From: a virus
Lineage: Duplodnaviria > Caudoviricetes
Virus record (IMG/VR): IMGVR_UViG_3300017913_002605
Location: 1-33,769 of that record
Length of the DNA stretch: 33,769 nucleotides
Strand: one strand, 5' to 3'
The notes under the pieces are model-generated. The model saw only the letters and a list, made by a program, of their open reading frames with translations. It did not search any database and was not told the DNA's origin. Below are positions 18,691 to 25,802 of this stretch, in pieces (the stretch's first letter is position 1; each line of letters starts with the position of its first letter). Made by a program: the position numbers and the translations under genes.

Positions 18691-18857
18691 GCCTCTCTCA
18701 CGATAATCTTGAGAACTTTTATACTCTCAACTTTCAATTGATGAATAGCTTTAAGTATTCAATGAGTGATCTAGATCATATGATACCTTGGGAGAGGGAA
18801 ATATATGTGGCAATGTTGATAACTGACCTAAAAGAGAAATCACAGAGGAACCAATGA
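18684..18857 (+). CDS. gp51: gp51-like baseplate hub assembly ORF (absent from ORF track; -1 frame relative to gp26)
   Basis: Manual translation FISLSHDNLENFYTLNFQLMNSFKYSMSDLDHMIPWEREIYVAMLITDLKEKSQRNQ*. 'MIPWEREIY' is the motif of the small gp51-annotated ORF of marine T4-like phages. First ATG is at 18741. Confidence 0.8.
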   Translation, partial: FISLSHDNLENFYTLNFQLMNSFKYSMSDLDHMIPWEREIYVAMLITDLKEKSQRNQ

Positions 18858-20287
18858 GTACCTTAGCATCAATTAATGAGACCCTCATAACTCAGAATAC
18901 CGTCCTTGGCTTGATTGGTGATACAACTCATCAAACAGCAAGAGGTATTGAGCGTCTGAATGCATACTTTGATGCATCAGCTGATGATGCAAGAGAAGCT
19001 GAAGCTGAGAATCGTGGTGATGACCAAGCCGATCAACAAACGCAGACATCTCGCGGCCAGACATCATCTGGCGGCGGTGGATTGTTTGATATGCTAAGCA
19101 AAGGTGGATTCTTATCGAGTATACTGAGTAAAGCTGCCATTGGTGCATTACTTGGTTCTATTGCTGTTGTATTGTCGGATGAGATTGGTAACTTTGTATC
19201 ATCTATTACTGGAAGTGATATACTTGGTTCGTTAGCTGAGTATGGATTAGTTGGTGCAGGTCTAGGATCTATATTTGGTATTAAAGGTGCAGCGTTTGGT
19301 GCAATGATAGGAGCAGTAGTTGGAGCTGCTAATCTTATAGGTGATGAAGTTCAAAAGTTCTTTAAAGAAAATGAGATTCCAGGCGATGCAGTAGCTGGTG
19401 AGGTTGCAAAAACGCTTACGTTAGCAGGATCTGGCGCGTTAGCTGGATTTGCTATGGGTGGTCCTGTTGGAGCAATCATAGGTGGACTTGCTGGAGCAAC
19501 AGTTGGTGTTACAGGCACGCTTATAGAATATTTTGGAGATCCAAAGTTTCAAAAAGCCATTGATGATGATATTAATGAAATCAAATCCGCTCTTGATGAT
19601 ATTTACAATAATGTTAACTCTTTCTTGGAAGAGAATGTACAAAAGCCATTAGTAAGTGCAGCTGATAGTGTTCGTGAGGCATTAGGTATGTCCACATCAG
19701 AAGATTATCAAGCCGAAGCTGTGAAAGCTGTTGACGCTGAGATAGCTGATGTCAAACAACAGATAAGTGATATGAGAGATGAGGCTCTTGCTCTTAGACG
19801 AGAAGCAAACAATGTCAAGACGACTGGGTTGAAAGGAGCTGAGAGACAAGCTGCTCGTGACCAAATAGCAGCGCTACAAGCACAATCAGATGAGATTGAA
19901 GCTGCTGCAAATAAATTAAGTAGAGATGAAATTGGCGCTTATGGTAGATTAACTAAATTAAAAAAAGATACTGTAGCTGAAGTTACTGCAGCTAAACAAG
20001 ATGAGCGGACAACAGTGAATGAAATGGCTGCAGATGCTACGCAAGCAGTTATTGATATTGGTAATAGAAACGTGCCTCCACAAGTTACAACCCCAGCCCA
20101 AACAGGAGCTGAGGTTGCACAAGCTAGTCAAACAATGAGAGAAGCTGAATCAGCTGCCAGTGGACCTGCTCAAGTTGTTGGCCAAGTTGGTGATAATGTC
20201 ACAAACAACAATAGCCAGAACATTATTGGCAATGGTGTAATGAGCACCATGAACCCTGCAGGTCCTTACTGGACACCAGTTAATTAA
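18854..20287 (+). CDS. Probable tape measure protein (gp29-like position)
   Basis: 477 aa, Ala/Gly-rich hydrophobic segments (GAMIGAVVGA, GGPVGAIIGGLAG), long predicted coiled coil, low-complexity C-terminus; follows gp26/gp51 with an ATGA overlap. Confidence 0.6.
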   Translation: MSTLASINETLITQNTVLGLIGDTTHQTARGIERLNAYFDASADDAREAEAENRGDDQADQQTQTSRGQTSSGGGGLFDMLSKGGFLSSILSKAAIGALLGSIAVVLSDEIGNFVSSITGSDILGSLAEYGLVGAGLGSIFGIKGAAFGAMIGAVVGAANLIGDEVQKFFKENEIPGDAVAGEVAKTLTLAGSGALAGFAMGGPVGAIIGGLAGATVGVTGTLIEYFGDPKFQKAIDDDINEIKSALDDIYNNVNSFLEENVQKPLVSAADSVREALGMSTSEDYQAEAVKAVDAEIADVKQQISDMRDEALALRREANNVKTTGLKGAERQAARDQIAALQAQSDEIEAAANKLSRDEIGAYGRLTKLKKDTVAEVTAAKQDERTTVNEMAADATQAVIDIGNRNVPPQVTTPAQTGAEVAQASQTMREAESAASGPAQVVGQVGDNVTNNNSQNIIGNGVMSTMNPAGPYWTPVN

Positions 20288-23812: not shown

Positions 23813-23972
23813 TCTCTCTTCTCCATACTGCATAATTGATAAAGAACATATAACCAACAACAAACCAAAAGACACTACCAGTCATTATGGCTTGAGTGAT
23901 CATCCAAGCACAGATTAATACTAGACCAATATCGCCTATGTTTATTCTGGGCGTTTCACTTGTTTGTAGCAT
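23805..23972 (-). CDS. Small two-helix membrane protein (55 aa, not in ORF track)
   Basis: Manual translation MLQTSETPRINIGDIGLVLICAWMITQAIMTGSVFWFVVGYMFFINYAVWRRESG*; fills the operon gap. Confidence 0.5.
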   Translation of the reverse strand: MLQTSETPRINIGDIGLVLICAWMITQAIMTGSVFWFVVGYMFFINYAVWRRESG

Positions 23973-24157
23973 ACGTATTTGTTTCCAATTGGTGTTTCAA
24001 TTGGCATTGAGTATACACCTGGTTCAGTACTTGGAGCCCTACATGGCTCTAGCTTTTCCCAATATGTGTACCCGTTTGCCTCGTGTTCAACTTTTGCGTT
24101 GAAAAAGTCTGCGTTAGTCCATGCAACCAGACCTAAAAATAAAATGCCTTCAATCAT
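23942..24157 (-). CDS. Small exported hypothetical protein
   Basis: GGAGA RBS before MIEGILFLGLVAW; two Cys. Confidence 0.65.
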   Translation of the reverse strand: MIEGILFLGLVAWTNADFFNAKVEHEANGYTYWEKLEPCRAPSTEPGVYSMPIETPIGNKYVCYKQVKRPE

Positions 24158-24176: not shown

Positions 24177-24330
24177 TGGTGGCTAACCATTGGCCACCGC
24201 GGATGTATTTAGGCATCACCCTTAATAAAGCAGAGCCAGCGTATACTTAATGGTACTGGGTGCGTTCTCCTTTGTTATTTAGGGCTTCCACCTAATCCCA
24301 CCTCACTTTAAAGTCTGCGTGTCCAAGACT
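24177..24330 (-). ncRNA. Putative structured RNA (~155 nt) transcribed from a late promoter
   Basis: Locally GC-richer intergenic segment with 5-6 stems found by eye and complementary loops ACCATT/AATGGT; starts a few nt after TATAAATA. Confidence 0.65.
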
Positions 24331-24334
24331 ATCT

Positions 24335-24342
24335 TATTTATA
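24335..24342 (-). promoter_or_regulatory. Late promoter TATAAATA ahead of the putative RNA
   Basis: Exact consensus inside an otherwise early region. Confidence 0.7.
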
Positions 24343-24345
24343 GGT

Positions 24346-24395
24346 TTCCAGCGAGGGAGCTGAGAGAGGAGCTAAATGGCTCAACCTCGCTGGAA
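24346..24395 (-). ncRNA. Hairpin with a perfect 11-bp stem carrying an anti-Shine-Dalgarno sequence
   Basis: TTCCAGCGAGG-TTGAGCCATTTAGCTCCTCTCTCAGCTC-CCTCGCTGGAA. Confidence 0.55.
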
Positions 24396-25398: not shown

Positions 25399-25802
25399 TT
25401 GTTATATATTTCCTCCTGGAGTCTATATGCTTCTTCTTCCCAAGGTAAAGCCATATACTCATCAGTAGTACTGAATGCAGTAATATGTTCTTCACCCTTC
25501 CAAGATTTCACAATACCTCTATCTTTTAACTCACCGCGTTCATGCTGCTTGACATGAACCATCTCATGAAAGATAGCTGTTACAAAATCTTCCTCAATCA
25601 GACCTTGTTGGATCTCAATCTCATGTTCACCTTTATCAAGAAACATATGAAACCCATCAACATCACCTTCAAGGTCGGTAATGCTAAGATCAATAGATAA
25701 AAATTTCTTCTTAGGCATAAGTTCTTTTACAGCAAACTCTACAGCTTTGCGAGCTAATAGACGCTCTGTACCTGAACCACCTTCTAAAGATATATGTAAC
25801 AT
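25383..25802 (-). CDS. Zincin-type HExxH metallopeptidase-like protein
   Basis: 'IFHEMVHVKQ' and 'Y..LPWEEEAY'. Confidence 0.8.
   Translation of the reverse strand: MLHISLEGGSGTERLLARKAVEFAVKELMPKKKFLSIDLSITDLEGDVDGFHMFLDKGEHEIEIQQGLIEEDFVTAIFHEMVHVKQHERGELKDRGIVKSWKGEEHITAFSTTDEYMALPWEEEAYRLQEEIYNKWIQI

Follow-up and report, generated by a model that had tools for sequence, protein, structure and literature searches.

It has long been known that small RNAs without an assigned function are found in the tRNA clusters of phages. The species 1 and 2 RNAs of T4 (rnaC and rnaD), which we take to be small RNAs of unknown function in the tRNA cluster, are like two of the three modules described here, B and D, in being small phage RNAs among tRNA genes; compared by description, B and D are shorter, pseudoknotted and without a conserved NCCA end. 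The orphan motifs manA (RF01745) and wcaG (RF01761) are reported, like modules B, C and D, from marine T4-like phages, with manA placed before ibpA chaperone genes much as D often stands before Hsp20 (PMC2864571), but neither model matches the window (the whole 33.8-kb stretch of DNA analyzed here) or its homologous loci even at E 10, or further loci at E 1, and the modules measure 35-55 nt, shuffle freely and also occur inside tRNA arrays. Similarly, pseudo-ToxI and the type III antitoxins are small H-type pseudoknot RNAs, by which phage TE is described as neutralizing host defence (PMC3475682, PMC5086642); ToxI-type RNAs are tandem near-identical repeats, however, and no such repeats are found here, where three unrelated folds occur once each. 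Theta (minimal HDV-like) ribozymes are also small pseudoknotted phage RNAs, some of them reported behind tRNA 3' ends (PMC10879173), whereas tRNA-adjacent copies of our modules are a small minority and the alignments of B and D, by inspection, hold simple pseudoknot-plus-hairpin folds with no nested double pseudoknot. Module D, the first bases of which pair into a loop and which often stands at a predicted 5' end, resembles the xrRNAs (PMC8374639, PMC5760640); the likeness is one of pairing alone, and xrRNAs are described from eukaryotic RNA viruses, whereas D also occurs at 3' ends. Guanidine-IV RNA (PMC7736828) and HK022 put (PMC9378689), the latter compared by layout alone, are like the modules two-hairpin RNAs near promoters, and the guanidine-IV terminator is described as lying within the motif (PMC7736828), as in some D copies, but the modules have no Rfam match and no consistent regulated gene, and most copies lack a U-tract.

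The window is a fragment of a T4-like myovirus that encodes baseplate and tail proteins, the late co-activator gp33 and a single-strand binding protein. Read on the minus strand, the flagged stretch occupies an intergenic gap that separates a 71-aa ORF from small ORFs of early type. An initial annotation had proposed one late RNA of ~155 nt, comprising a multibranch domain and a possible kissing-loop pseudoknot; its broader claim, a non-coding structured RNA on this strand behind a T4-type late promoter, is borne out, and four of its local stems covary. We are highly confident, however, that the stretch consists of three independent modules, B, C and D, with the folds described below, of which the window holds one full copy each. 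The features of the locus are as follows.

24346..24395, minus strand: module A, which precedes the promoter and is not part of the late transcript; a pyrimidine loop, GCUCCUCUCUC, is conserved on its long, variable stem
24342-24335, minus strand: T4-type late promoter TATAAATA, recognized by sequence and kept in 17 of 19 syntenic loci
24279-24330, minus strand: module B, a hairpin, a 3-bp pseudoknot and a T-loop arm
24225-24263, minus strand: module C, a bulged hairpin
24178-24222, minus strand: module D, a 2-bp pseudoknot and a hairpin
23942..24157, minus strand: ORF of 71 aa that belongs to no known family; it has a GGAG ribosome site and begins 20 nt beyond D

The promoter sequence TATAAATA occurs seven times in the window against 2.8 expected, a count of at least seven being reached in 4 of 100 shuffles. 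In T4, transcription from late promoters is described as starting about one turn of the helix downstream (PMC2988020), and the start predicted from this, a fair inference, is at the first pair of module B (24330) or adjacent to it. The 71-aa ORF, whose homologues downstream of D are confined to this clade, is likely co-transcribed with the modules. As a whole, the 166-nt stretch folds modestly better than shuffled sequence (z -1.67; 11 of 200 shuffles as good).

The comparison with Rfam proposed in the initial annotation returned no family: searched against Rfam 15, the window gave no match at gathering and only chance lncRNA matches at E 0.5-4.4, and across 40 homologous loci no match was centred on B, C or D, with one Lacto-phage-1 match (E 4.7) clipping the end of D in one locus (L225). 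ARAGORN found no tRNA in the window, and a tRNA identity was rejected, neither B nor D having an acceptor stem with a single-stranded NCCA end. The CCA-like end that had been noted is accounted for by the terminal stem, in which both C's are paired; of 112 D copies, 4 have NCCA after the last pair, as do 4 of 81 B copies. A literature search yielded, among the matches listed, no description of the B, C or D motifs or sequences, some of these matches being unrelated primers. The modules may be among the 8,495 DNA-virus candidate RNAs that Fremin et al. (2023; PMC10690425) report mining from an earlier IMG/VR release, there without a function; the tables of that study, which may hold no sequences, gave no match to them. 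Collectively, the modules do not carry the full defining features of manA, wcaG, tRNAs, theta ribozymes, type III antitoxins or riboswitches, and judged from sequence they are best classed as orphan phage structured RNAs, here apparently as swappable cassettes.

Module B begins with a 5-bp hairpin (24330-24326 with 24316-24312), the loop of which contributes CGC (24319-24317) to a predicted pseudoknot with GYG (24306-24304), after an invariant AAA; a linker, ARGUGG, leads to a 5-bp arm (24295-24291 with 24283-24279) that closes a 7-nt T-loop-like UGGAANC. Among the 65 distinct of 66 aligned sequences, drawn from 89 pattern cores, 94% of cells are paired, compared with 23-50% in slid controls, and two-sided changes occur in 7 of 14 pairs, including the outer hairpin pair and five arm pairs. 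The pseudoknot is consistent but varies on one side only (G-C in 50 sequences, G-U in 15), and has no two-sided support because the IMG/VR scan yielded no further variant of its middle G; the H-type pseudoknot is indicated by one-sided variation in B and by four-way covariation in D. A model built partly from the window sequence matches the window's B at 78 bits. The 5-bp arm covaries, and its nearly invariant 7-nt loop contains the U..A pentaloop given as the definition of a T-loop (PMC4810234), which suggests that the arm adopts the T-loop fold in three dimensions. Besides this one clear T-loop-like loop, B has a possible second pentaloop, U-N-G-G-A, atop the first hairpin; the elbow binders T-box, RNase P and the L1 stalk have two head-to-tail interdigitated T-loops.

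The first 52 nt of the stretch match 48 cultured Pseudomonas phage records by BLAST, including phage D3, where B lies between tRNA-Met and tRNA-Gly, and IMG/VR pattern scans returned 88 and 91 loci. Here and below, module counts are of related sequences, overstating independent events, and part of the invariance is fixed by the search patterns. After deduplication by 30-nt flanks, 123 of 130 B instances have no C or D within 300 nt, and seven, including the window, have both (L280 is an eighth, its C recognized by pattern only). A tRNA or tmRNA is nearby in 41 of the 130; six lie between two tRNAs with 4-29-nt spacers, and 4 of 131 start within 5 nt of a tRNA 3' end. Outside Pseudomonas, B follows TAAATA in 8 of 76 cases (0.2 expected), nearly all of one clade, that of the window; in Pseudomonas it does so in 0 of 36. 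It ends in a U-tract in 4 of 118 copies and is single-copy in both of two records. A scan of 185,579 prokaryote species genomes gave seven pattern matches, six of which were dropped as chance, their stems missing; the sole true match is on a 1.4-kb MAG contig. No B was found in E. coli genomes, and the five P. aeruginosa plasmid records with B are all phage-sized. T4-like myoviruses and temperate phages of P. aeruginosa share the invariant loops of B. On the flanks of B, D3-like phages of P. aeruginosa carry additional GC-rich structured blocks, which differ from one phage to another (in D3, L001 1400-1770, record 53610-53980); the annotated orf86 of D3 overlaps these blocks and may be spurious.

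In module D the pseudoknot (24222-24221 with 24212-24211; alignment columns 2-3 with 12-13) engages the module's 5'-terminal bases, as in xrRNAs. A 4-bp GAUG/CAUC stem (24217-24214 with 24205-24202), with a loop ending in AAUA, is joined by a CRY linker to a terminal hairpin (24198-24193 with 24183-24178) that bears a conserved loop of 8 or 9 nt, C(N)AYGGUUA. Because the first alignment (95% paired, 46 sequences) was pattern-biased, D was rescanned with the stem and pseudoknot letters left free, which gave 240 loci with 175 distinct cores. The 4-bp stem, its letters free in the search, is complete in 170 of the 175, whereas the GGGTG/CATCC register read in the initial annotation is complete in 22 and has no two-sided change in the 46 sequences (500 of 500 shuffles as high). 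The first pseudoknot pair, which joins the base before the G-run to the third loop base, is AU in 93 cores, CG in 45, GC in 20 and UA in 4 of 175, and ranks second in corrected mutual information across the 170 full-stem cores; the other pair is G-C in 171. A third pair (columns 4 and 11) had seemed real in the pattern-biased alignment and was dropped on the freer set, which has GA in 99, GC in 44, GG in 30 and GU in 2 of 175, although one of the two scans did not admit C at column 11. The covariation of that column with columns 5 and 10/19 is not of the Watson-Crick kind and hints at a base triple at the pseudoknot junction.

Module D is widespread. The last 41 nt of the stretch match four Melnitz records by BLAST, in which C and D both occur and the matched region is downstream of a two-piece tmRNA and a glutamine riboswitch; where the Melnitz paper (PMC9004378) discusses the tmRNA and riboswitch of this region, it makes no mention of C or D. 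Three D variants searched among cultured phages gave no match. IMG/VR pattern scans returned 17 and 120 loci (~140 estimated), and metagenomes are estimated, from 6 of 64 parts and one fixed-length pattern, to hold ~1,400 stored stretches. Within the freer set (n=197) the neighbours of D are C in 15 cases, B in none, and a tRNA or tmRNA in 31. In 28 of 261 copies, against 2.0 expected, TAAATA lies 1-10 nt (mostly 4-7) before the start of D, and in 103 of 265 a stop codon precedes D within 30 nt. Copies ending in a U-tract number 74 of 265, to be read against a background of 200/2,400 that includes coding DNA and is hence lenient; 32 of the 74 have no ORF behind them, and the window's D has no U-tract. 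Half of the promoter-proximal copies (14 of 28) end in a U-tract, making predicted units of 50-55 nt, and 11 of these 14 have an ORF within 60 nt. D lies between two tRNAs in 1 of 287 cases, starts within 5 nt of a tRNA 3' end in 5 of 288, and is single-copy in 9 of 10 records with a match. An ORF follows within 100 nt in 103 of 197 cases; these 103 ORFs fall into 41 clusters, and 9 of 15 scanned representatives have a PHROG match, including Hsp20, clamp loader, gp33, HNH nuclease and carbamoyltransferase. In one clade (L139, L147, L152, L199 and others), D is followed by a conserved 74-82-aa protein without a PHROG match, then C and gp33; Melnitz has the order D-C-hairpin-gp33 without this ORF. 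Units of late promoter, D and U-tract are predicted to be complete in seven loci (L367, L494, L498, L500, L520, L558, L566), most of which have a ribosome site and ORF just behind the unit.

Module C is a GCA/UGC stem, a 3-nt CUC bulge, a variable stem of 4-5 bp, a loop ending in UAUAC and a short A/U tail. In 29 insertion-free sequences of 55, aligned with the window excluded and with the basal GCA/UGC stem fixed by the search pattern, 96% of cells are paired and 4 of 8 pairs have two-sided changes; the resulting model matches the window at 36 bits. A pattern scan of IMG/VR gave 25 loci, and C follows TAAATA in 1 of 82 cases. Where C and D occur together, in 29 distinct pairs, the order is C-D in 17 and D-C in 12. 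One locus (L120 642-779, minus strand) has two divergent D copies flanking C (D-C-D), behind a late promoter and tRNA-Arg.

The position between promoter and C behaves as a slot. In 19 syntenic loci, with folds read by eye, it holds B in seven, a lone hairpin in four, another predicted H-type pseudoknot in four, a further fold in one, nothing in one and a promoterless module in two, and whichever module is present starts ~4-11 nt after the promoter (by eye). At least four further folds replace B or add to it (L007, L012, L123, L124; L009, L010, L013, L133; L116; L119, L126), and include two predicted H-type pseudoknots, a module in which the loop is the D-like CRYGGUUA, and a hairpin that stands alone and has the loop UGAAAUC. 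Seawater RNA-library contigs of relatives either skip 24265-24334, which is exactly B, or insert 46 nt between B and C. These contigs inform on neither expression level nor transcript ends: the runs (X1-X4, shares 0.14-0.16) come from one study, the relatives' contigs are mostly less than 95% alike and the flanking genes are covered too, and short contigs ending at 24177, considered as RNA ends, are explained by assembly branch points.

The elements from which the single 155-nt RNA had been assembled are all present on the minus strand: TATAAATA at 24342-24335 with AGTCT/AGACT starting 4 nt later, the stem sequences TTAGG/CCTAA, CCAGT/GCTGG and GGTGGC/GCCACC, and the complementary loop segments ACCATT (24254-24249) and AATGGT (24191-24186). 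Homologues nevertheless split the stretch into B, C and D, with separate pseudoknots in B and D, in place of one multibranch RNA. The closing helix TAAAGTGAG/CTCTGCTTTA joins strands of modules that mostly occur apart, and of 8 distinct contigs with both B and C, 2 have all five of its outer pairs. The two CCTAAATA copies to which attention had been drawn belong to the T-arm/spacer and to the D loop, and their sequence is not constant among relatives. Covariation, one of the checks suggested in the initial annotation, upholds pairing within each module and goes against the loop-loop pairs: a duplex of at least 5 bp between the C and D loops is possible in 1 of 29 distinct C/D pairs, the window itself, which also has the only 6-bp match. 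ACCATT occurs in 3 of 29 C loops, AATGGT in 1 of 29 D loops, and the nearest relatives keep ACCAUU but have AACGGU opposite; in the window's C loop ACCAUU arises from an insertion. A 3-bp AYY/GGU remnant duplex is possible in many C/D pairs, among which GGU never varies.

The modules behave like small RNA genes in that they are single-copy, have loops that stay invariant in unrelated phages and hosts, are indifferent to the next gene and stand at 5' ends, at 3' ends and between tRNAs; for this reason we place most weight on trans-acting RNAs, and tentatively propose that B, C and D are gene-like small RNAs that bind a conserved host partner. The row of three compact modules would be transcribed from the TATAAATA late promoter, each presenting an invariant surface to its partner. 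The modules would then be cut free, by tRNA-processing nucleases in tRNA arrays, by termination where there is a U-tract and by RNase E in the A/C-rich linkers here, and would act in trans, late in infection, on a host factor for RNA handling or defence, which they would probably inhibit or, as the likeliest use, decoy. The T-loop arm of B points to a protein partner that binds or cuts tRNA. A phage RNA mimic has a reported precedent in the pseudo-ToxI of phage TE (PMC3475682, PMC5086642). We count in favour of trans-acting RNAs the three folds, their independence, the slot swapping, the restriction of B to phages and the mostly single copies; against them stand the arrangement of 133 of 265 D copies, in which a ribosome site and an ORF lie no more than 60 nt away, as they would for a cis-leader, the start-site enrichment of D and B, which fits 5'-end protection equally well, and the want of a general flanking processing helix (an RNase III-type helix in 60-nt flanks reaches z <= -3 in 1 of 76 B and 3 of 260 D copies, and not in the window). 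A packaging RNA or a leader specific to the next gene, both left open in the initial annotation, is unlikely because the modules precede unrelated genes and occur in tRNA arrays. The modules need not share one function.

A bolder and rather doubtful extension is that such modules form an exchangeable arsenal of phage RNA decoys, in which B would mimic or grip the tRNA elbow, C and D would bind other host factors or signals, and the promoter slot would be a hotspot of swapping; if true, this would be an RNA counterpart of anti-defence protein cassettes. Three sharply delimited families that Rfam does not contain come from this one locus, and one of them, D, is very common in aquatic metagenomes. 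The modules are traded as cassettes, and B (Pseudomonas phages) and C and D (Melnitz) occur in cultured phage-host pairs; their function can now be put directly to the test. As decoys or aptamers they would add an RNA-based class of counter-defence, and as protectors or ribozymes they would be minimal new RNA tools.

It is unlikely, though the best placed of the alternatives to trans-acting RNAs, that the modules are cis-acting end protectors, each fold sequestering the 5' end or blocking RNase E scanning and so stabilizing late mRNAs and tRNA precursors. Obstacles to RNase E are reported to protect largely regardless of composition (PMC9943677), and end protection would therefore explain both the interchangeability of the modules and their enrichment at start sites: a TAAATA stands 4-10 nt before D and B much more often than chance would give, any module in the slot keeps a similar distance (by eye), and several copies begin 4-9 nt after a tRNA CCA. 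Moreover, the first bases of D pair into its loop, and xrRNAs are described as blocking 5'-3' exoribonucleases including RNase J1 (PMC8374639). A generic obstacle, however, needs no invariant loops, and the modules are present in a single copy per genome; ~90% of D copies have no late promoter directly upstream, and among the 74 that end in a U-tract, 32 have no ORF behind them to protect. In addition, beta- and gamma-proteobacteria are described as having almost exclusively RNase E/G-type enzymes (PMC3997798), yet B occurs in P. aeruginosa phages.

We consider it decidedly unlikely that the modules are cis-acting transcription switches, with D as a ligand- or protein-sensing attenuator whose last hairpin serves as terminator, and B as a put-like element that modifies RNA polymerase. 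The promoter-D-U-tract-ORF layouts (the 11 of 14 copies above) have the order that an attenuator would have, D adjoins the glutamine riboswitch in Melnitz, and there are reported parallels in guanidine-IV, whose terminator belongs to the conserved motif (PMC7736828), and in put, a two-stem RNA downstream of promoters (PMC9378689). Against this, the 103 downstream ORFs in their 41 clusters offer no coherent gene theme, copies also lie between tRNAs, and a U-tract is absent from 191 of 265 D copies, the window's included, and from 114 of 118 B copies; a guanidine-IV-like attenuator would have a U-tract in almost all copies and functionally related genes consistently behind it.

That the modules include at least one self-cleaving ribozyme, of a class not described before, that cuts polycistronic late and tRNA transcripts is a conjecture from fold and placement that we regard as quite improbable. 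Compact pseudoknots and invariant cores would suit a ribozyme, as would the few copies that start within 5 nt of a tRNA 3' end (4 of 131 B, 5 of 288 D), the position reported for theta ribozymes (PMC10879173), but there is no nested double pseudoknot and no Rfam ribozyme match, copies at start sites and terminators would have little to cut, and three different cutters in a row would be redundant. The single 155-nt late RNA with multibranch domain and kissing-loop pseudoknot is highly implausible, for although the B-C-D order is kept in eight related contigs, the 6-nt complement is exact in the window and its nested fold is 3.9 kcal/mol better than the nested modular fold, the kissing match and the complete closing helix are as rare as described above and the modules are found alone, reversed or replaced. 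With pseudoknots and tertiary contacts unscored, nested energies in the window are -24.7 kcal/mol for the modular fold, -28.6 for the fold of the initial annotation and -46.5 for the minimum; since both folds are far above the minimum, long-range mispairing may compete with the modular fold.

Several observations concern the surroundings of the modules. On the plus strand, a 477-aa ORF (window 18854-20287) opposes the neighbouring replication genes and has weak matches only, to glycine-zipper and SbcC-like proteins. Upstream, module A precedes the promoter in syntenic loci; 20 variants share its fold and its stem covaries, while a 21st match (L127) is a different structure. Its loop is anti-Shine-Dalgarno-like, with 9 nt complementary to the ribosome site (25815-25807) of an ORF starting at 25802, and is also complementary to the AGGAG immediately before module C; module A is possibly a small RNA that silences early genes. 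A-like CUCUCUCCU stretches also lie directly upstream of D in a different clade (L137, L156, L216, L252).
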